The translations under genes and the position numbers were made by a program. Shown here one piece after another: positions 1-63,968 of a DNA stretch of 64,000 nt. Under the pieces are notes generated by a model. That model worked only from the letters and a program-made list of their open reading frames with translations, was not told the DNA's origin and searched no databases. The number at the start of each line of letters is the position of its first letter. The first letter of the stretch is position 1. Source of the DNA: an uncultured Pseudogracilibacillus sp. (GTDB lineage Bacteria; Bacillota; Bacilli; Bacillales; Amphibacillaceae); assembly GCA_937974845.1 (NCBI GenBank), contig CALJVC010000081.1:3176-67175 (forward strand), given 5' to 3'.

Positions 1-1853
1 GGATCGCTCTTTTTGCCCGGGGGAGACGGGTGGGCGGGTACATTTGGATTATTCATTTTTTCATGAGTGTCCTATTATATGCCAACGTCGTCTTCTACCG
101 TTTTAATAGCGACTTTATTACGCTACCCTTGCTCACACAAACGAGCAACTTTGGAAGCCTCGGTAGCAGTGTGATTAACTTAATGGCTTGGCACGATATT
201 TTATACTTTTTAGACGTCGCCCTATTACTCTACTTGTTTTTAACGAGTAAACAGATTTGGTCTAACGAGCGGATGAAATTACGCCGTCCGATTTTAATTA
301 TTAGTGCGGGGGTACTCGTCTTTTCTATTAACCTAGCTCTAGCTGAGTTAGATCGACCACAACTATTAAAGCGCACCTTCGACCGAAACTATATCGTGAA
401 ATATTTAGGTGCCTATAACTTTACGATTTATGATGCGATTCAAAATTTAAAAACATCGACCGAAAGGGTTTTGGCCGATAGCGACGATGTGACGGAAGTT
501 CGAAACTATTCTATGCTGAAATATGCTGAACCGAACGAGGAGCTTTTCGGAGTAGCTAAAGGAAAGAATATTATTAAGATTCACTTAGAATCCTTCCATT
601 CTTTCCTGATTAACTTTGAATTAAATGGCGAAGAAGTCACACCCTTTTTAAACTCTTTAGTCAACGAACATCAAGATGAGTTTACCTATTTTGAAAACTT
701 CTTCCACCAGACGGAGCAAGGAAAGACCGCTGATGCGGAGTTAATCGTCGATAACTCCTTATACGGCTTGCCCCAAGGAAGTGCCTTCGTTACGAAGGGA
801 AAAAATACTTATCAAGCTTTACCGGCCATTTTAAAACATGAACAAGGTTATACTTCCGCCGTATTACACGGGGACGGGAAGTCTTTCTGGAACCGGGATG
901 AAATTTATAAACAATTCGGAATCGACTACTTTATCCATGAAGATTATTACGATATGCGGGAAGAACAGGTCATTGGTTATGGTCTAAAGGATAAACCTTT
1001 CTTTAAAGAATCGATGCCTATTCTCGAATCGTTCCCTGAGCCCTTTTACGCTCACTTTATTACTTTGACACATCATCATCCATACTTAATCGATGAAGAG
1101 GATGCAACGATTCCACCGGCCGAAACCCAAGATGCTTCGGTCGATCGGTACTTCCAGACAGCCCGTTACTTAGACGAGGCTTTAGAGATGTTCTTTGAGG
1201 ACTTGAAAGAAGCTGGTTTATACGAAGATTCAGTCATCTTCCTGTACGGTGACCATTATGGTATTTCTGACAACCATTTACGGGCTTTAAGTGAGATTTT
1301 TGATACGAAAATGGATGCCTATAAGTACGCCAACTTACAGCGCGTTCCTTTCTTAATAAAAATCCCTGGCGTCGAAGGTCAAGGTACGATTTCTGAATAC
1401 GCCGGACAAATCGATGTCATGCCAACCCTTATGCATTTACTCGGTATCGATGCTCGAGACTATATCGTCTTCGGTACTGACATGTTCAGTGAAGAACACA
1501 ACGACATCGTCATCTTCCGGAATGGTGACTTCTTTACTGAAGAATATGCTAAAGTAAAAGGGAACTACTACGATAACCGTACCGGAGAAGAAATTGAAGA
1601 ACCGAATGAAGAATTAAAGGAAATTAACCAACAAGTTCTGCATGAATTAGAGCTTTCTGACAAAGTATTACAAGGGGATTTATTACGGTTCTATACCCCT
1701 AAGGATGACTGGGAACCGGTCAATCCTTCCGATTACTTTTACGATGAAAACCAAATCTACATTAAACCTAACCTCATCGAAAAATGGCTGGGAGATCAAG
1801 ATATAGAGGACGATGAGGAAGAAATGATTTTAGAAGAAGGTTTAGAAAAATAA
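1..1853 (+). CDS. ltaS: LTA synthase family sulfatase (LtaS-like), N-terminus cut by window edge
   Basis: ORF 30..1853 (607 aa) stays open in frame back to nt 3. Hydrophobic N-terminal helices are followed by an extracellular sulfatase-type domain (HLESFHSF, GKTADAE, HHHPY, YGDHYG), typical of Firmicute lipoteichoic acid synthases. An intrinsic terminator follows. Confidence 0.85.
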   Translation, partial: IALFARGRRVGGYIWIIHFFMSVLLYANVVFYRFNSDFITLPLLTQTSNFGSLGSSVINLMAWHDILYFLDVALLLYLFLTSKQIWSNERMKLRRPILIISAGVLVFSINLALAELDRPQLLKRTFDRNYIVKYLGAYNFTIYDAIQNLKTSTERVLADSDDVTEVRNYSMLKYAEPNEELFGVAKGKNIIKIHLESFHSFLINFELNGEEVTPFLNSLVNEHQDEFTYFENFFHQTEQGKTADAELIVDNSLYGLPQGSAFVTKGKNTYQALPAILKHEQGYTSAVLHGDGKSFWNRDEIYKQFGIDYFIHEDYYDMREEQVIGYGLKDKPFFKESMPILESFPEPFYAHFITLTHHHPYLIDEEDATIPPAETQDASVDRYFQTARYLDEALEMFFEDLKEAGLYEDSVIFLYGDHYGISDNHLRALSEIFDTKMDAYKYANLQRVPFLIKIPGVEGQGTISEYAGQIDVMPTLMHLLGIDARDYIVFGTDMFSEEHNDIVIFRNGDFFTEEYAKVKGNYYDNRTGEEIEEPNEELKEINQQVLHELELSDKVLQGDLLRFYTPKDDWEPVNPSDYFYDENQIYIKPNLIEKWLGDQDIEDDEEEMILEEGLEK

Positions 1854-1860
1854 AAGATTA

Positions 1861-1892
1861 CGGAAGCAAGCACTGACTTGCTTCCGTTTTTT
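1861..1892 (+). terminator. intrinsic terminator of ltaS
   Basis: 10-bp stem CGGAAGCAAG/CTTGCTTCCG, 6-nt loop, then TTTTTT, 8 nt after the stop codon. Confidence 0.85.
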
Positions 1893-2502: not shown

Positions 2503-2542
2503 TTTTAAAAATTAAACCCTCTAGTTGCTCCTTACTAGAGGG
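2503..2542 (-). terminator. intrinsic terminator of ilvA
   Basis: Minus strand reads CCCTCTAG-loop-CTAGAGGG followed by a TTTAATTTTT tail, 10 nt after the ilvA stop. Confidence 0.75.
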
Positions 2543-2551
2543 TATTGTTAT

Positions 2552-3532
2552 TTATGCGGTATGGCCATTAGCCAATCGCTGGATTAATGGTATTTGATCA
2601 ATGTCGAAGTTTCCTCCACTAACGATGACACCACAATGACGGGATTTGATAGCATCGTTATGGGAAAAGAGGGCAGCGAGGGCCGCTGCACCTGCCCCTT
2701 CCATTAATGTCTTATTCCGTTCTAACATATAGAGAATTGCCTTTGCAATCTCTTCTTCTGTTACCGTCACAATATCGTCTACGTACTTTTCAATTAATGG
2801 TAAGGTTTTTTCTCCTGGAGTTTTTACAGCGATTCCTTCAGCAATCGTATCTGCCCGAAGGGGTCGGGTTGCTTTAATTCCATGAAAGGCATAATAGGCT
2901 GGTGGAATATAATCCGCCTGTACCCCTATAATTCGGATGTTTTTGTTGACGTGCTTTGCTGCGACGGCCATTCCACTAATTAAACCGCCACCGCCGATTG
3001 GTACGATAAAGGTGTCGATACGATCCTCCTGGCGCAAGGTCTCCATCGCAATCGTCCCTTGACCTGCCATCACATCATAGTCGTCAAAGGGATGGACATA
3101 GGTAGCACCGGTCTTTTTCTGCGATTCCATCGATGCTTCATAGGCTTCCTGGAAGGAGCTACCTGTTAAAACGACCTTTGCACCGTAATTTTGCGTAGCT
3201 TCGATTTTCGCCTGGGGCGTTTTTTCCGGCATGAAAATCGTTGCCTTTGCCCCAAGCTTCCGGGAGGCGTAAGCGACCCCCTGGGCGTGGTTCCCCGCCG
3301 AAGCAGTAATCACGCCCTTTTCCAGTTGTGCTTTCGAAAGTTGCATCAGTTTAAAGGTTGCGCCTCGGAACTTAAAGGCGCCGGTCTTTTGTTGGTTTTC
3401 CATTTTGAAATATACTTTTTTATCGACGATTCGATTCGTCGTCTCGGATGTAATCAACGGTGTTCGATGTACGATTGGCTTGAGCCGTTCGTACGCTTGA
3501 TATATTTTTTCTCCAGTTAATAAATCCCCAAT
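2552..3532 (-). CDS. ilvA: threonine ammonia-lyase (short TdcB/IlvA type without a C-terminal ACT-like regulatory domain)
   Basis: PLP-lysine motif TGAFKFRGA and GGGGL loop. The track ORF 2552..3457 starts at a TTG. The conserved N-terminal segment (LTGEKIYQAYERLKPIVHRTPL) continues in frame upstream to an ATC/ATT at 3535/3532, behind an AGGGAG RBS. The start codon is uncertain. Confidence 0.85.
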   Translation of the reverse strand: MGDLLTGEKIYQAYERLKPIVHRTPLITSETTNRIVDKKVYFKMENQQKTGAFKFRGATFKLMQLSKAQLEKGVITASAGNHAQGVAYASRKLGAKATIFMPEKTPQAKIEATQNYGAKVVLTGSSFQEAYEASMESQKKTGATYVHPFDDYDVMAGQGTIAMETLRQEDRIDTFIVPIGGGGLISGMAVAAKHVNKNIRIIGVQADYIPPAYYAFHGIKATRPLRADTIAEGIAVKTPGEKTLPLIEKYVDDIVTVTEEEIAKAILYMLERNKTLMEGAGAAALAALFSHNDAIKSRHCGVIVSGGNFDIDQIPLIQRLANGHTA

Positions 3533-6682: not shown

Positions 6683-6902
6683 ATTCCTTCCCCATTTCTT
6701 ATTTTCCTGACTTCGTTCGACATCCTTGTCGAAACGCTAGAGTTAGCCCAGCTTCTACGGATGCTTACTTTCGTTTTCGGTTTACTGTAGTTTCAAGCTT
6801 TTCCCGTTGAACCCTGGGCTTCTCAAGATCCCTTGTCTTCAAATTTATAGTCGACGGTCTACATACGTTCAAGCTGCATTCCCCCTATAAAAAGGGTTTT
6901 TT

Positions 6903-6934
6903 TGAAAAAGAGAGGCGGAAAATTCGTCCGCCTC
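6903..6934 (-). terminator. intrinsic terminator after ilvC
   Basis: Minus strand GAGGCGG-9 nt loop-CCGCCTC followed by TCTTTTTC, 42 nt after the ilvC stop. Confidence 0.7.
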
Positions 6935-6975
6935 CTATGTCAACAGCTGTAACTATCTCATATAACCGTAGTAAC

Positions 6976-13899: not shown

Positions 13900-14349
13900 T
13901 TAATCGAGATGTTTTTCTTCATACTCTTTAATTTTATTAATGCGACGAGTATGGCGATCGCCTTCGAACTCTGTCGTTAACCAAGTATAGACGATTTCTC
14001 TAGCTAAGGCTGGACCGATGACACGCTCGCCCATAGCTAAGACATTCGAATCGTTATGCTGTCTTGTTGCCTTGGCTGTGTACACATCGTGCGTCAAGGC
14101 ACAGCGAATACCTTTTACCTTATTGGCAGAAATCGACATCCCGATTCCTGTACCACAGATAAAAATGCCTCGGTCAAATTCACCACTAGCTACCCGCTCG
14201 GCCGCAGGCAAGGCATAGTCTGGATAATCGACGGAGGTCGTACAGTCAGCCCCTGTATCTTCATATTCATAGCCAAGCTCGTCTAGGACGGCTTTCACTT
14301 CATTACGTAAAGTCATTCCGGCATGGTCGCCTGTAATAATTACTTTCAT
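13900..14349 (-). CDS. rpiB: ribose-5-phosphate isomerase B
   Basis: 149 aa LacAB/RpiB family (ICGTGIGMSISANK). Confidence 0.92.
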   Translation of the reverse strand: MKVIITGDHAGMTLRNEVKAVLDELGYEYEDTGADCTTSVDYPDYALPAAERVASGEFDRGIFICGTGIGMSISANKVKGIRCALTHDVYTAKATRQHNDSNVLAMGERVIGPALAREIVYTWLTTEFEGDRHTRRINKIKEYEEKHLD

Positions 14350-14498: not shown

Positions 14499-14998
14499 AA
14501 TATATAAGAGCCCAGCCACTGTATATAGGATTTTTCGCCAGTTACAGTCGAGGCCATTCTTGTAAATGGAAACTTCTCCTGTTTACATTGAGGGGCTTAC
14601 CTTGTAAACGAATCTTTTTTCTGTATATAGGGAGGCTTGCCTTGTAAATAGAAATTTCTCCTGTTTACATGAGGGGCTTGCCTTGTAAACGAAAATTCCC
14701 CCTGTTTACATGAGAACCTTGCCTTGTAAACGAACCTTTTTTCTGTATACAGGGGAGCCGGCCACTGTATACAGGATTATTTTTTTCTAAAACCTGTATA
14801 CAGTAAAGGCTTCTACTGTATACGGAATAAAATTTTTTCCAAACCTAGATACAGTAATCATGTTCACCGTATACAGAATTCCTTCTCCATATACAAGAGA
14901 CTGGCCTACCGTAAACAAAAATAAATCCCATATACAGTAGAGCATTCTCTCGTATACCGTCCTCCCTTTCGTATACAAAAGGCTTGTCCTTCTAGCTA
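14499..14998. repeat. Array B: 12 tandem about 41-bp palindromic units of the same family as array A
   Basis: Left half-sites start at about 14499, then 14539, 14580, 14622, 14662, 14703, 14744, 14795, 14846, 14888, 14929 and 14970. Right half-sites follow 20-22 bp later. The only ORF is a repeat-generated 63-aa frame. Confidence 0.9.
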
Positions 14999-15016: not shown

Positions 15017-15048
15017 AAAAAAATGAAGCCCAAGGTTGGACTTCATTT
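15017..15048 (-). terminator. intrinsic terminator of the MCP gene
   Basis: Minus strand AAATGAAGTCC-loop-GGGCTTCATTT followed by a run of seven T, directly after the stop. Confidence 0.7.
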
Positions 15049-15052
15049 TCTA

Positions 15053-16339
15053 CTAATGAAACTTGTGGATCTGCTCCTTTAGGCTACTGGCCTGGGAGGT
15101 TAAATCCTTCGTCAAGCTTTCTAAAACTTCAATCGATTCGTTTTGTTCATTGACCGAAGCACTCACTTGTTCTGTCGCTGCCGATGTCTCTTGGGCGATA
15201 GAAGATACGTCCCGGGACTGGTTCATCGCCGCTTGAATATAAGTCATCTGTTTATTAACTAGCTGGCGAATTCCCTTTACATCCTCAGCTACCGCTTCGG
15301 CAGAACGACGCATTTCCTGAATCGAAGCATTCGTATTTTCACCGCTGATTGCTTCTTCTTCGGCCCGTTTCACATGCTCACTTATCTTCGTTACAACAAC
15401 CGATACATCCCGTTGGATCGTATCGACAAGGGAGCGGATTTGTTGCACCGCTTGGGCACTTTCATCCGCTAAGGTGCGAATTTCATCGGCGACGACCGCA
15501 AAGCCTTGGCCATGCTCTCCGGCTCGAGCCGCTTCAATCGAAGCATTTAAGGCAAGTAAATTCGTCTGCTCCGCGATATCACCGACCATGGAAATAATAG
15601 CCCCGATCTCTTCCGCATTAGCCTTTAACTTCTCGACATCCTTTAAAGAAACCGTCTGTTCCTCCGCTAAAGTCTGGATTCCCGTAACTAAATCGTTCAC
15701 AACCTCGGTACTTTCTGCTAAGGTCGAAAGCATATCAGCCGAACGTTCGTTAGATTGTTCCGCCCGATCCTGTACATGCTCCGCCAGCGAGGTCGCCTGT
15801 TCTACCGCCTCTGCCGTCTCTTGAATAGCATTAGCTGCATTGACTGCCCCACTTGCAATATCGGCGGTTGCTTCACCAATATTTCGAGAGTGCTGGGTCG
15901 TCTTTGTCACGAGCTCCTGCATCTCGTTAACGGTCTTGTTCGTATCGTCAAAGTTCCGTTCGATATCGTCGACCATTTGTTTAATGTTTGTCAGCATCGT
16001 ATCAAAGGCTAGGCTTAAGGAGCGGATTTCATCTTCCGATTTCGGAATCGCAATTTCTTGGTTTAAATTCCCTTCGGCCGCCTCGGTAGCTGCTTCCTCT
16101 AAGCGTTGCAAGGGTTCAGTAATAATCCTAACGAAAATAAAAGTTAATATTCCTGTCCAAAGAATGCCTAGCACGAAGGTAATGCCCGTAAACCAAGGCT
16201 CCGATAAAGATATGTACCCTTTCACATAATCGTATAAAACATAGATAAAAAAAGCGCTTGTCGAATAGGTAACGGTTGCCACAATGGTTGTAAATAAAGT
16301 TAATTTCTTCTGCAAACCAAACTGGTGACGTCGCTTCAC
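15053..16339 (-). CDS. methyl-accepting chemotaxis protein (two TM helices, HAMP, MA domain, minimal sensor loop)
   Basis: 428 aa. Contains the signalling hairpin motif EQTNLLALNASIEAARAGEHGQGFAVVADEIRTLA. Confidence 0.9.
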   Translation of the reverse strand: MKRRHQFGLQKKLTLFTTIVATVTYSTSAFFIYVLYDYVKGYISLSEPWFTGITFVLGILWTGILTFIFVRIITEPLQRLEEAATEAAEGNLNQEIAIPKSEDEIRSLSLAFDTMLTNIKQMVDDIERNFDDTNKTVNEMQELVTKTTQHSRNIGEATADIASGAVNAANAIQETAEAVEQATSLAEHVQDRAEQSNERSADMLSTLAESTEVVNDLVTGIQTLAEEQTVSLKDVEKLKANAEEIGAIISMVGDIAEQTNLLALNASIEAARAGEHGQGFAVVADEIRTLADESAQAVQQIRSLVDTIQRDVSVVVTKISEHVKRAEEEAISGENTNASIQEMRRSAEAVAEDVKGIRQLVNKQMTYIQAAMNQSRDVSSIAQETSAATEQVSASVNEQNESIEVLESLTKDLTSQASSLKEQIHKFH

Positions 16340-42338: not shown

Positions 42339-42685
42339 TGTATCCAATCTCTAGACCTATTTACAGTAATTCGTTCCATTATAAATAGAAAATATTTTCG
42401 TTTACAAGAAAAGCATCTACTGTATATCCGCATAAATCCTATATACAGTAATCATGTTTACTGTATATAGAAGAAAACTTTTTTATATCCTGTATACAGT
42501 AAATGCCTCTACTGTAAATAGGTTTTTTAAAAAATCTATCCTGTATACAGTAAAATCGTCTACGGTATACAGGAATTATTCCTATTTACAAAAAAGCGTT
42601 ACACTGTATACAGAAAATATTTCTATATATAAGGAGCCAAGTCCATATATATAGAAAATTTTACCGTATACAAGATGCCTTTGCC
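42339..42685. repeat. Array C: 8 tandem about 41-bp palindromic units (plus one flanking half-site) of the same family as arrays A and B
   Basis: Left half-sites start at 42358, 42399, 42440, 42491, 42542, 42583, 42624 and 42665. Right half-sites follow 21-22 bp later. The only ORF is a repeat-generated 66-aa frame. Confidence 0.9.
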
Positions 42686-42701: not shown

Positions 42702-42734
42702 AAAAAAGTGTAGAAGGAGGAATTCCTTCTACAC
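42702..42734 (-). terminator. intrinsic terminator of argS (bidirectional shape)
   Basis: 11-bp stem GTGTAGAAGGA/TCCTTCTACAC flanked by A and T runs, 4 nt after the argS stop. Confidence 0.85.
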
Positions 42735-42737
42735 TTT

Positions 42738-44408
42738 TTACATTTTCTCCGGTGCAGAGACCCCGATAAGACGTAGACTATTTCCTAGGGTAATTTTTAC
42801 AGCCTTCATCAAGGCAATCCGGGCCTCTGTCAATGGTAGGTTCGCCTCATCGATAACCTTCTCCGCATTGTAAAAGCTGTGCAAGAAGCTGGCGAGGTCA
42901 AAAACATACTGGGTAATTCGATAAGGCGCCTCCCGCTCGGCCGCTTCCGCTACCACTTCTGGGAAGGAGGCGAGATGGCGTAGGAGGTCACGCTCCCGTT
43001 CAGTTGTCAGTAGGCTAGGATCGAAGGCTTCGCTAGTAGCCAATCCCTTGGCCTCTGCCTGCTTTAACATAGTACAAATTCGCGCATGGGCGTATTGAAC
43101 ATAGTACACCGGGTTTTCATTCGATTGCGAGCGGGCTAGATTCAGGTCAAAGTCTAATTGCGAATCGTTCGAACGCATGTTGAAAAAGTAACGCACCGCA
43201 TCGACACCTACATCTTCAACTAATTCCCGTAACGTAATCGCACTACCGGTCCGCTTGCTCATGCGTACAATTTCTCCGTCTTCTAAAACATTCACCATCT
43301 GAATGACGCTGACTGATAACTTTTCTTCTGGGTAGCCAAGGGCTTGGATCGCCGCAGAGATTCGCGGAATATAACCATGGTGGTCTGCACCCCAAACGTT
43401 AATAATTTTGTCAAAACCACGGGCTAACTTATTCTGGTGATAGGCAATATCCGGCGTTAAATAGGTGTAGGAGCCATCCTTCTTAATTAACACCCGATCC
43501 TTGTCATCGCCGAAAGCCGTCGACTTAAACCATGTCGCTCCGTCTTCTTCATAGACGTAGCCTCGTTCCTCTAGTTTCGCTAAAACTTGTTCAATCTGCC
43601 CGTCTTCATAAAGGGAAGATTCGGAAAACCATTGGTCAAATTCTACCCGGAAATCAGCTAAGATTTGTTTAATGCGCTCGAGCTGATAATTGAGGCCATA
43701 CTCACGAAAATAGGATAACCTCTCCGCTTCCCCTACTTCTAACCAACGGGAACCTTCCTTCTCTTTGATTTCCTCTGCAATAGCTTTAATATCTTCACCA
43801 TAATAGCCATCCTCAGGCATCGCCATCTCTTGGCCATGGGCTTCGTAATATCGAACTTCAATCGACTTGGCAAGTTGATCGATTTGGTTTCCAGCATCGT
43901 TAATATAATATTCCCGTTCCACATCATAACCAGAAAAGTCTAGGACATTGCTTAACACATCGCCAAAAACCGCTCCCCGAGCATGGCCTAAGTGGGGCTC
44001 TCCTGTCGGGTTCATGGACACGAACTCAACTTGGATTCGTTGACCCTTTCCACGATTCGTCCTTCCATAGTTCTCCTTTTCTTCTAGGATTGTTTCAACG
44101 ACGTCATTTAAATAGGCTTCATCCATAAAGAAATTAATAAAACCAGGTCCTGCAATATCTAGTTCTTTCACCTGGGCCTTGCTCGTATCAAGATGCTCGA
44201 CAATCTGCTCGGCAATTTGGCGCGGAGCCTGCCTAGCTACCCGGGCCAGTTGCATGGCAATGTTCGTTGCAAAATCTCCGTGGGCTTTTTCCCTTGGTTT
44301 TTCTAAAATAATTTCCGGTAACTCCGCTTCCGAACAAAGCTCCGCCTGCAAAATCGCCTGTTTAATCTCCGATTTTAATGTCTCTTCTATCGAACTTAAT
44401 AAGGTCAT
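42738..44408 (-). CDS. argS: arginine--tRNA ligase
   Basis: 556 aa class I synthetase with HIGH-type motif ([13 protein letters not shown]) and MSKRTG (KMSKS-like). Confidence 0.97.
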
Positions 44409-62076: not shown

Positions 62077-62251
62077 CTCTTATCAAGACGGATGGAGGGA
62101 ATGGGCCCAATGAAGTCCAGCAACCTGAAAGCATACGTCCATGCTTTTTCCGGTGCTAAATCCTACAGGTAGACTACCTGGAAGATAAGAGGAGGAATGA
62201 ATCGAGACGATATCAAACCTTCTTCTATCTTTTTTAGAAGAAGGTTTTTTT
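62077..62251 (+). promoter_or_regulatory. SAM-I (S-box) riboswitch with terminator
   Basis: CTCTTATCAAGA...GGAGGGA...GGCCC.ATGAAG...CAGCAACC...GGTGCTAAATCC...GAAGATAAGAG, followed by the terminator AACCTTCTTCT/AGAAGAAGGTT and a T run. Confidence 0.9.
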
Positions 62252-62339: not shown

Positions 62340-63968
62340 ATGGTTAATTTTCAGTTTCAAAAGGACGATACGATCTTAGTTCATGGAGGGCAGGAACCCG
62401 ATCCGGTAACTGGCTCACGGGCGGTACCGATTCATCAAACGACATCCTACGTTTTCCGAGATACAGACCATGCCCGTAACCTATTCGCCTTAACAGAGTC
62501 AGGAAACATTTATACCCGGATCATGAACCCGACGACCGACACCCTTGAACAGCGGGTTGCCTTATTAGAGGACGGTACAGCTGCCGTCGCCGTTTCTTCC
62601 GGAATGGCAGCTATTACGTACGCCATTTTAAACGTAGCCGGTGCCGGCGACGAAATCGTTACAGATAGTAATCTTTACGGTGGAACGTATAACTTATTTG
62701 TACATACCTTGCCTCGCTTCGGCATTAAGGTAAAGTTCGTCGATGGATCTAATCCCGAAAATTTCCGCACGGCCATTACCGATAAGACGAAGGCCATTTT
62801 TGGCGAGACGATTACGAACCCAAGCTTACATGTTTTTGATATTGAAAAAGTCGCTGCAATCGCCCATGAACACAATATCCCTTTAATTATCGACAACACC
62901 TTCGCGCCCTACTTTGCTAAACCTTTACAATGGGGAGCCGACGTCGTCGTCCATTCAGCTACGAAGTGGATCGGTGGACACGGTACGAGCATCGGTGGTG
63001 TCGTCGTCGACGGTGGACGCTTTAACTGGGATAATCCGAAGTTTCCAGGCTTTACAGAGCCAGACGAAAGCTATGGCGGGGTACGCTATGCCGATTTAGG
63101 TCCTGTAGCTTTTGCCGTCAAATTACGGGTACAATTATTACGAGATACCGGTGCAGCCCTAAGCCCACACAATGCTTTTTTACTGCTCCAAGGCTTAGAA
63201 ACCTTGCACCTACGAATCACCCGGCATAACGATAATGCCATTGAAGTAGCTAACTACTTAAATAATCATCCCGCCGTCGCCTGGGTAAACTTCCCTGGCT
63301 TAAAAGACCATCCATCCCACGAGCTCGCCCATAAGTACTTTAGCGAGGGCTATGGTTCTATCGTTACCTTTGGTATCAAGGGGGGCTACGAAGCAGGGAA
63401 AAACTTAATCGACACAATCGATCTCTGGTCGCACGTCGCCAACGTCGGGGACGCTAAGTCTTTAATCATTCACCCGGCATCCACGACCCACCAACAGCTA
63501 AGCCCAGAAGATTTAGCTAAAAGCGGGGTCACAGAGGATCTAATCCGTCTCTCCGTAGGTATCGAAAGTCTTGACGACATTATCGGTACATTAGATGAAG
63601 CGATTGGGAAAGTAACAAAAGTATATACCCGAGTCCAGGAAGAAACGGATGCTACGGATTGGTTAACGACTTCTCCTTTCGACCGTTCCGATGGTATACG
63701 ACGGAAAACAATCGTCGTGAAAGGCGATGAAAAACTATACGAAGAAGTCCGTAGCCTGACGAAAAAAGGCTATCACGTCCTACGAATCGAAGACCATGAC
63801 AAAGAAATTGTCGACTGCTTATTAACTAATGAAGCAATTACCGACCCATTTATACAGGACGTTCAAGCCATCGAACCTAAAATTATTTGGACGACAGACC
63901 GTGTAGATACGACAGATGCTTCAATTGTGACGATTGCTGAGAAGGACTTTTTAGGTTACTTCATTTAA
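62340..63968 (+). CDS. metY: O-acetylhomoserine sulfhydrylase (aminocarboxypropyltransferase) with a C-terminal extension of about 115 aa
   Basis: Cys/Met PLP family with the PLP lysine in [11 protein letters not shown]. The canonical end ([25 protein letters not shown]) is followed by an extra domain of about 115 aa. Confidence 0.9.

Follow-up and report, generated by a model that had tools for sequence, protein, structure and literature searches.

Tandem arrays of inverted-arm units in an uncultured Pseudogracilibacillus: probable members of a fast-evolving hairpin repeat family in some Bacillales

Three tandem arrays of hairpin-forming units lie between genes in a stretch of 64,000 nucleotides from an uncultured Pseudogracilibacillus species (assembly GCA_937974845.1, contig CALJVC010000081.1, positions 3,176 to 67,175), which we call the window. 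We suggest that the arrays probably belong to a fast-evolving, non-coding family of interspersed hairpin repeats in some Bacillales, similar in kind to REP/BIME, BOX and SPRITE elements. The family is present in the window species, in a sister species and in Staphylococcus massiliensis. Each unit has two inverted arms of 8-13 nt whose starts are 22 nt apart, followed by an A/T-rich linker, which gives a period of 41 bp (short units) or 51-52 bp (long units). An earlier note on this DNA, made from the letters alone, had described the three arrays and had proposed that they are binding sites for a protein on duplex DNA. The comparison with relatives leads us to a different reading.

The arrays occupy approximately positions 1950-2470 (A), 14520-14977 (B) and 42339-42672 (C). 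Tandem Repeats Finder reports periods of 41 and 51 bp at about 1949-2455, 14559-14751 and 42531-42572. The 8-mer TGTWWACA occurs 19 times in the window against 2.8 expected (none of 100 shuffles gave 19), and 14 of these copies fall in three clusters. The arrays and their spacings are real, as the earlier note had said. The arrays were traced by walking the window with a relaxed core motif. The core-to-core distance is 22 bp inside a unit (range 21-23, slightly more than the 20-22 bp previously given) and 19-20 bp between units. The exceptions are six linkers of exactly 29 bp, all of which had been correctly located before (2095/2124, 2146/2175, 14766/14795, 14817/14846, 42462/42491 and 42513/42542). 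In the spacing histogram of the window there are values of 19 (n=14), 20 (n=3), 22 (n=20) and 29 (n=7) and almost nothing else between them.

Each window array has two neighbouring 51-bp units with 41-bp units on either side. Array A, read on the plus strand like the other two, consists of about 12 full units and a terminal half-unit: 3-4 degenerate short units, two long ones (2073-2174) and 7-8 short ones. Array B, which contains the segment originally flagged, has about 10 units with half-units at both ends, arranged as 5-6 short, two long (14744-14845; arms of the CTGTATACAG type at a distance of 22 bp, core-to-core linker of 29 bp) and 3-4 short. Array C has about seven units plus half-units: two short, two long (42440-42541) and 3-4 short. 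The arrays are thus modular, with short units outermost and a core of long units whose number, as will be seen, is variable. In the window the central units are the most alike between arrays, the outer units are array-specific and more degenerate, and the segments between the arms vary from unit to unit. The order of the central units is not collinear from array to array: B7 resembles C4 and A6, and B8 resembles C3 and A5. We therefore reject the possibility that a single element was copied whole.

Left and right arms are each other's reverse complement. The earlier note did not mention this, and it matters for the interpretation. Each unit is an imperfect palindrome of 30-36 bp, or a hairpin, with the window consensus tcC-TGTATACA-GTAG..CTAC-TGTATACA-GAA; one array unit folds into a 12-bp stem of about -16 kcal/mol. 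The two 51-bp units of array B form a 12-bp stem on either strand, at about -16 kcal/mol each. Those of array A are each a hairpin with a 21-nt A/T-rich linker (GAATATAGTTTTTAAAAATCC and GAATAATTTTTTTAAAAATCC), with folding energies of -18.8 and -12.7 kcal/mol on the minus strand, which is the sense strand of the genes, versus -7.9 and -8.4 kcal/mol on the plus strand.

Relatives of the window species show how changeable the arrays are. Let L be a unit with a 29-nt linker and S a unit with a 19-20-nt linker. Complete arrays of the sister species then read LLLLLL, LLLLLLL, SS-LLLLL-SSS (contigs L289 and L255), LLLLLLLLL-S and L-S. Two near-identical relatives differ at one and the same locus with alignable flanks, where contig L257 has 9-10 long units and contig L268 has 1-2. 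Since adjacent long units in young arrays are near-identical, the segments between the arms included, and since contigs of the metagenome-assembled genome (MAG) of the sister species terminate inside arrays, the long-unit core is a variable-number tandem repeat (VNTR). Between close relatives, the count of long units shifts in register, as from replication slippage or unequal recombination. Slippage had been argued against in the earlier note, and the change from 1-2 to 9-10 units at a single locus is of just this register-preserving kind. The same note had proposed one blueprint with exactly two long units. This describes the three window arrays well, but relatives have 0, 1 or 3 to about 9 consecutive long units; what recurs is the looser pattern of a long core with short flanks, as in SS-LLLLL-SSS. 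We infer that "exactly two" is simply the present copy number in three old, diverged arrays. The two linker classes can be set side by side (GAA[TTTGAGAAAG]TTTTATC versus GAAAATTTATC). Most simply, the 10-bp step between them is an inherited unit (indel) variant and not evidence of selection on helical phase.

Whole arrays also come and go. The rpiB protein encoded beside array B and its counterpart in Pseudogracilibacillus auburnensis share 90% identity. Array B itself, with 0-3 differences, is found on ten metagenome contigs that encode an identical rpiB and hence is not an assembly artefact. Between the MCP gene and rpiB the window has 703 bp. P. auburnensis has 36 bp here and a second lineage has 26 bp; in the closest relative (96% identity in rpiB) the spacer measures 152 bp and comprises a terminator and a promoter without an array. 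No array was seen in the 20 kb of the syntenic region that were examined in P. auburnensis (L189). The sister-species MAG and several JGI contigs, which are 74-85% identical to the window in nucleotide sequence, carry arrays downstream of ilvC and at the equivalents of window positions 39.3k, 50.1k and 58.0k, where the window has none. Conversely, the intergenic region of the sister species that is orthologous to the site of array C (L263) is 292 bp long and has no array. Sister-species arrays can be as near as about 6 kb to each other. Arrays are therefore gained and lost at intergenic sites, usually just past a terminator, on the time scale of species divergence.

Two further observations concern the MCP-rpiB spacer. 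The gap of 26-36 bp in P. auburnensis and the second lineage looks like the junction of two genes in an operon. The window species has, between its MCP gene and rpiB, a terminator, array B and an rpiB promoter that is conserved (L189, L193 and L190 were compared).

How is such a family to be recognized when its sequence is not conserved? A scan of the genome collection found true relatives in two organisms only, a Pseudogracilibacillus MAG and S. massiliensis. The arrays are dispersed, with three in the 64 kb of the window, more than 30 on separate contigs of the sister species and 12 loci in S. massiliensis, and they contain up to more than 30 units in tandem. The S. massiliensis unit, TTCGTTTACA-cgtttctgaagtct-TGTAAATC-aaacgcccttt, has a strict spacing of 22 + 19 bp and no long form. 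A second type of block in this organism, GTTTATCA ... TGATAAAC, has mirrored changes in both arms. In the closest relative of the window species (L190) the arms are AAACCTTTCCG-14 nt-CGGAAAGGTTT, wholly different in sequence, with a spacing of 22 + 30. There are four or five unrelated arm sequences in all, among them TGTATACA, GTTTACA/TGTAAAC, GTTTATCA/TGATAAAC and CCTTTCCG/CGGAAAGG, and they have a common geometry of 22 + 19/20 or 22 + 29/30. Arrays with CCTTTCCG/CGGAAA(GG/AC) arms are composed exclusively of 52-bp units; they lie at 6660-6983 of L190 (the closest relative, with glyA and upp on either side) and at 60-490 of contig L295, where an array of the TGTATACA type is present as well.

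In all five arm types 65-68% of arm positions form Watson-Crick pairs, versus 18-51% when the partner is slid by 1-2 nt. Both arms change together between subfamilies, and the geometry is kept. The interior of 14 nt shows 0-3% pairing at most positions in S. massiliensis and in L190, and its length is constant. Linkers of true family members are 18-21 or 28-30 nt long and none has 23-27 nt. A mismatch in the centre of the stem is conserved in 87 of the 89 long units of the sister species.

The position of the arrays is also not arbitrary. All three window arrays are downstream of strong intrinsic terminators of minus-strand genes, as had been noticed before, and the first recognisable arm is 30-40 bp past the end of the U-tract rather than the 10-20 bp originally stated. 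Array A begins about 36 bp past the U-tract of the terminator (2516-2543, minus strand) of a PLP-dependent enzyme gene (2552-3457, minus strand). It is bordered on the opposite side by the terminator (1860-1887, plus strand) of a convergent sulfatase-family gene (30-1853, plus strand). Array B lies between the MCP gene (15053-16339, minus strand) and rpiB (13900-14349, minus strand) and begins about 40 bp past the MCP terminator (15017-15048, minus strand; -19.2 kcal/mol, U7). Array C is downstream of argS (42738-44408, minus strand), about 30 bp past its terminator (42703-42739, minus strand; -21.5 kcal/mol, U6). The window arrays sit between the terminator and the next promoter. The genes that flank arrays in general are housekeeping genes (sulfatase-family, PLP enzyme, MCP, rpiB, argS, Fe-S protein, thiC, sortase and others).

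There are arrays in other settings. One is in the divergent intergenic region upstream of thiC (L140 2430-3330), and another is upstream of one or more thiamine-related genes and is followed by a sequence that by eye resembles a TPP riboswitch (L107 1-200). Not every array, then, is downstream of a terminator. A terminator-like hairpin, GGAGGCGGACGAATTTTCCGCCTC followed by TCTTTTT, is present downstream of ilvC, between ilvC and leuB, at 6885-6950 of the window (minus strand). It is kept in the sister MAG, and there an array begins 15 bp after it.

The two strands of a unit are not equivalent. GC skew is negative over the entire window (-0.08 to -0.13), so that the minus strand is both the gene-sense and the leading-strand sequence. 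A-C mismatches and G.T pairs, when counted on the antisense strand of the flanking genes, stand at 62:22 in the window and at 186:93 in oriented units of the sister species, numbers that count sequences and not independent mutational events. The excess of A-C on the antisense strand means that the wobble pairs lie on the sense strand. For one long unit of L255 the folding energy is -17.1 kcal/mol on the sense strand, where a 17-bp stem is followed by AAUUUUUUU, versus -4.6 kcal/mol on the antisense strand. Among 72 distinct long units of the sister species, the sense strand gives the better fold in 52 and the antisense strand in 12; the corresponding numbers for window units are 15 and 8, with A4 and A5 strongly asymmetric. 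The gene-sense strand, whose sequence is also that of the lagging-strand template, consequently forms the better hairpin. Of 23 sister arrays that could be scored, some of them the same locus in different samples, about 20 have the linker T-run on the strand that is sense for the nearest gene. In S. massiliensis the orientation of the units flips once along the 1.76-Mb scaffold, between 728 and 824 kb. There are caveats: the folding z-scores of array B as a whole are alike on both strands (-7.15 and -6.10), and in S. massiliensis the order of blocks is not always inverted along with the orientation of the units. An array of more than 1.6 kb in this organism, broken by an N scaffold gap (L161 1130-2720; scaffold 1, at about 729 kb), lies beside a terminator and has a TTTACA block followed by a TTATCA block; its units have the orientation opposite to that of other arrays with an equal order of blocks. 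Orientation judged from loop or linker sequence was discarded as unreliable: every segment is quasi-palindromic, and the results contradicted each other within S. massiliensis as well as between window and sister species. The asymmetry of pairing is the more informative guide.

A mechanism can be proposed on this basis. A repeat would seed in terminator-proximal intergenic DNA and would then expand and contract in register by slippage or unequal recombination. The element may be recognized, propagated and/or tolerated as a single-stranded hairpin, either in single-stranded DNA (ssDNA) of the lagging-strand template or in sense RNA. The single-stranded structure with its fixed arm spacing would be the constraint on the repeat, and the position and polarity of arrays may reflect the sites where hairpins harm least. 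The same mode of action has been proposed for REP/BIME elements, for the ends of IS200/IS605 and for the terminator-like SPRITE repeats. Among the alternatives listed in the earlier note was the footprint of a terminator-targeting mobile element, and this is close to what the data support.

Several points weigh against the hairpin repeat family as we have described it. Neither a mobilising enzyme nor defined element ends were found around the arrays. Target-site duplications and exact insertion borders were not found either, the flanks of filled and empty sites being too diverged to align. Hence the word "mobile" relies solely on the patterns of presence and absence. In S. massiliensis the hairpins are weak (-3 to -5 kcal/mol, z about -0.5 to -0.9) and yet the arms and their 22-nt spacing are strictly conserved; a hairpin alone would be insufficient here, which points to a protein that measures the arms. 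The asymmetry between strands is open to objections too. Apart from the limit on the wobble counts given above, strand-biased mutation could supply part of it (the skew of the window is of the sign and size stated), and in these genomes the direction of genes is confounded with that of replication. Relative to the genes, the central A/T run of the long linkers is inverted between the window and the sister species. Finally, arrays that follow efficient-looking terminators may be little transcribed, which weakens a role at the RNA level.

The reading of the earlier note was that a dimeric protein binds cooperatively along one face of duplex DNA. Arm pairs would be putative dimer sites phased by about 2, 2 or 3 turns, and the array, coated on one helix face, could be an organiser, a roadblock or a topological insulator comparable to sopC, parC or iterons. 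Some observations speak for such a protein: the 22-nt arm spacing is constant across genera and arm types, even where the inner 14 nt are not self-complementary, linkers avoid the range of 23-27 nt, the hairpins of S. massiliensis are too weak to be stable by themselves, and the conserved central mismatch of the stem resembles a recognition feature rather than drift. Nevertheless, we consider this explanation unlikely. A site read as duplex would not be expected to show strand asymmetry in wobbles and folding energy. The whole helical turns are approximate: with 10.5 bp per turn, units of 41 and 51 bp span 3.9 and 4.9 turns, and the phase would drift by 34-51 degrees per unit. The two linker lengths have the look of a single inherited indel variant. 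Copy number is unstable, arrays are gained and lost at orthologous sites, and arms are wholly different, both between the subfamilies on contig L295 and between species that share 96% identity in rpiB. The earlier note had itself said that genomic copies without the core of two long units would refute its reading, and such copies were found. No par, rep or DNA-binding gene adjoins any array. A partition centromere or iteron array was rejected on the last ground and because the repeat sequence is not conserved within the lineage; the suggested origin-proximal role in segregation gets no support, the examined 20 kb of P. auburnensis being without an array. What survives best from the duplex reading is the ruler. 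A protein that measures the distance between arms is plausible, judging from a spacing that is constant even where the 14-nt interior cannot pair, and this is the best remaining argument that a bare hairpin is not sufficient.

If the arrays acted instead as RNA, transcribed in sense by read-through, they could be tandem back-up terminators, stabilisers of 3' ends, insulators or sources of processed small hairpin RNAs. G.U pairs do make the hairpins more stable on the sense strand, where the 17-bp stem of the sister species precedes its T-rich tract and where most T-runs are found. In the window, the long linkers begin on this strand with U4-U6, 1-5 nt past the stem, and two of the six begin with GGAUUUUU. 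The arrays are placed between a terminator and the next promoter, and there is a precedent in SPRITE (PMC3049150). On the other hand, a strong terminator already precedes each window array, short units have no U-tract, and a consensus scan calls no terminator inside the arrays. The similar z-scores of array B on both strands, the units of S. massiliensis that hardly fold and the arrays between divergent genes, such as the one upstream of thiC, do not fit easily with this idea. Nor does any Rfam family match, and rapid gain and loss speaks against an essential role. A functional RNA as the main explanation thus seems improbable to us. Far less probable still is an array of guide RNAs or antitoxins (CRISPR, TIGR-Tas or type III toxI), in which the repeats would flank guides or would themselves be the RNA antitoxin. 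TIGR arrays have two alternating repeats of 8-12 nt and a unit of about 36 nt (PMC12045711; bioRxiv 10.64898/2026.09.09.750476). With units of about 36-41 nt the likeness to our arrays is superficial, and it is true that in the old arrays of the window the segments that separate the arms vary from unit to unit. In young arrays, though, these segments are near-identical from unit to unit and so are not spacers. No box C or box D motifs (RUGAUGA/CUGA) were seen framing them, and no tas (Nop-domain), cas or toxN-like gene adjoins any array. Each genome has dozens of arrays at scattered sites, not a single locus, and viral contigs have none. CRISPR is rejected on the repeated segments, the lack of cas genes and the best score for a CRISPR repeat family in Rfam, its sole match, 14.6 bits against a threshold of 39 bits. 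TIGR-Tas is rejected on the conserved would-be spacers, the lack of the framing motifs and flanks without a Nop-domain open reading frame (ORF). Type III toxI is rejected since the genes downstream are rpiB, an Fe-S oxidoreductase gene and a sulfatase-family gene, and the arrays follow terminators and do not precede them.

A more specific version of the hairpin repeat family can also be suggested, although we regard it as doubtful. The arrays might be a Bacillales counterpart of the REP/RAYT system: a family defined by structure (inverted arms of 8-11 nt at a distance of exactly 22 nt, a mismatch conserved in the stem, periods of 41 or 51 nt), in which a putative structure-specific protein would read the single-stranded hairpins, measure the arm spacing and seed arrays past terminators in a strand-specific manner. 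The host would have partly co-opted them as modular terminators or as transcriptional or topological insulators.

The search for such a protein, and for known families, was negative within its scope. A Pfam scan of 29 ORFs flanking arrays found housekeeping functions only and no transposase; an all-against-all search of ORFs in approximately 370 kb around arrays found no multicopy gene; and among the flanking ORFs scanned no transposase, par, rep, cas, tas or toxN gene adjoins any array. At Rfam gathering thresholds the arrays have no match, and the only one in the window is a SAM riboswitch (RF00162, 76.8 bits) at 62077-62191 (plus strand), upstream of an ORF at 62340-63968. With relaxed E-values array B gives generic miRNA-like hairpin noise only. 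A blastn search of PLSDB with array B returned no plasmid, and three pattern scans of IMG/VR gave single chance matches or none. Promoter and terminator consensus scans show no enrichment inside arrays beyond chance. No published description of the family was found in the literature searched, the coverage of which is incomplete, and novelty is not proven.

Some of what the scans brought up is unrelated. Matches in TA-rich DNA of Metamycoplasmataceae are other tandem repeats and were set aside. GTATAC-rich repeats of a different nature occur in a Bacteroidaceae MAG (22-bp ATGTATATACGTATCCGYCAAC repeats), in a Nitrospirales MAG (kilobase-scale GTATACA repeats of about 14-15 bp) and in JGI metagenome contigs (24-bp satellites); loci of such repeats are L081 995-1290, L094 3150-4150, L218, L248 and L196. 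An IMG/VR viral contig (L032 2740-2950) has about nine TTGTATATACAAA palindromes spaced by about 27-28 bp, which resemble an iteron or operator array with an unrelated geometry. Within the family, 51-bp units equal 17 codons, and sister arrays built of them (e.g. L221 2017-2532, L204 156-656) are open in several frames on both strands. They give spurious ORFs of 100-170 amino acids that cluster in all-against-all blastp. We rejected coding repeats on these open frames and on the 41-bp period, which breaks the frame.

If the arrays are indeed a family of hairpin repeats, they would be a Gram-positive addition to the few structured interspersed repeats that are known (REP/BIME, BOX, SPRITE, MIRU). 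Their signature is unusually clean, with a fixed 22-nt arm spacing, interchangeable arms and two unit lengths 10 nt apart. It follows that such elements could be detected by geometry where searches by sequence fail. The family would be a tractable system for asking what mobilises REP-like hairpins without an evident RAYT, and it would allow a direct test of terminator-proximal hairpin arrays as insulators. There are practical consequences as well: the arrays break short-read assemblies, yield the spurious ORFs just mentioned and would serve as high-resolution VNTR markers. They also advise caution where helical phasing or "blueprints" are inferred from three copies of a repeat.

The family can be compared with other kinds of repeats. 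Plasmid centromeres and iterons (sopC of F with 12 x 43 bp, parC of R1 and pSK41, iterons of theta replicons) are likewise tandem, with a period of about four helical turns and an inverted repeat in each unit. They differ in that they adjoin par or rep genes, occur once per replicon and are matched in sequence to their binding protein, whereas the arrays here are dispersed, have no adjoining partner gene and vary between sister species in sequence, number and location. The MIRU/VNTR loci of mycobacteria are intergenic tandem repeats of 40-100 bp that are oriented with neighbouring genes and vary in copy number between strains, and in all this they are alike. MIRUs, however, are non-palindromic, can carry short ORFs that overlap neighbouring genes and have no relationship in sequence.

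The pneumococcal SPRITE is an element that resembles a Rho-independent terminator (PMC3049150). Our long units are similar: on the gene-sense strand a long stem runs into a U-rich tract, and they lie near the 3' ends of genes. SPRITE is single-copy and not tandem, while the family here includes short units that have no U-tract, and no terminator is called within its arrays. REP/BIME elements are extragenic palindromes with discrete linker classes and several families per genome, thought to act as single-stranded hairpins (PMC6006769). The likeness is considerable: imperfect extragenic palindromes of 20-40 nt in many copies, clustered with discrete linkers at the 3' ends of transcription units, and several sequence families per genome whose sequence drifts between lineages with the hairpin kept. 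Differences are the head-to-tail arrays with strict periods of 41 and 51 bp in place of inverted REP doublets (REPINs), the A/T-rich stems, the Bacillales hosts and the fact that no RAYT (TnpA_REP, a Y1 HUH transposase) or REPtron (such a gene flanked by REPs) was seen near the arrays (29 ORFs, about 370 kb). Membership in REP/RAYT cannot be claimed, as inverted doublets are not seen and RAYT was looked for near arrays only. Head-to-tail palindromic units with strict periods, interchangeable arms and Bacillales hosts set the family apart from SPRITE and BOX too.

In general layout a parallel may be drawn with BOX. BOX elements of Streptococcus pneumoniae (boxA-boxBn-boxC) have a variable number of boxB modules, are enriched downstream of coding sequences and have an orientation that mirrors coding bias (PMC3049150). 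Their modules are 45-59 bp long and the element is bounded by IS-like terminal inverted repeats; in our family, by contrast, ends and an IS relative are not known, every unit is palindromic and the sequences are unrelated, as judged by eye. Yet both are modular, intergenic, predicted to form stem-loops and without an adjoining transposase, and in both flanking modules surround a tandem module of variable number. This layout is seen in the window (short-LL-short), in SS-LLLLL-SSS of L289/L255 and in the change of number from L257 to L268, with outer units that are specific to an array and central units that are common between arrays.

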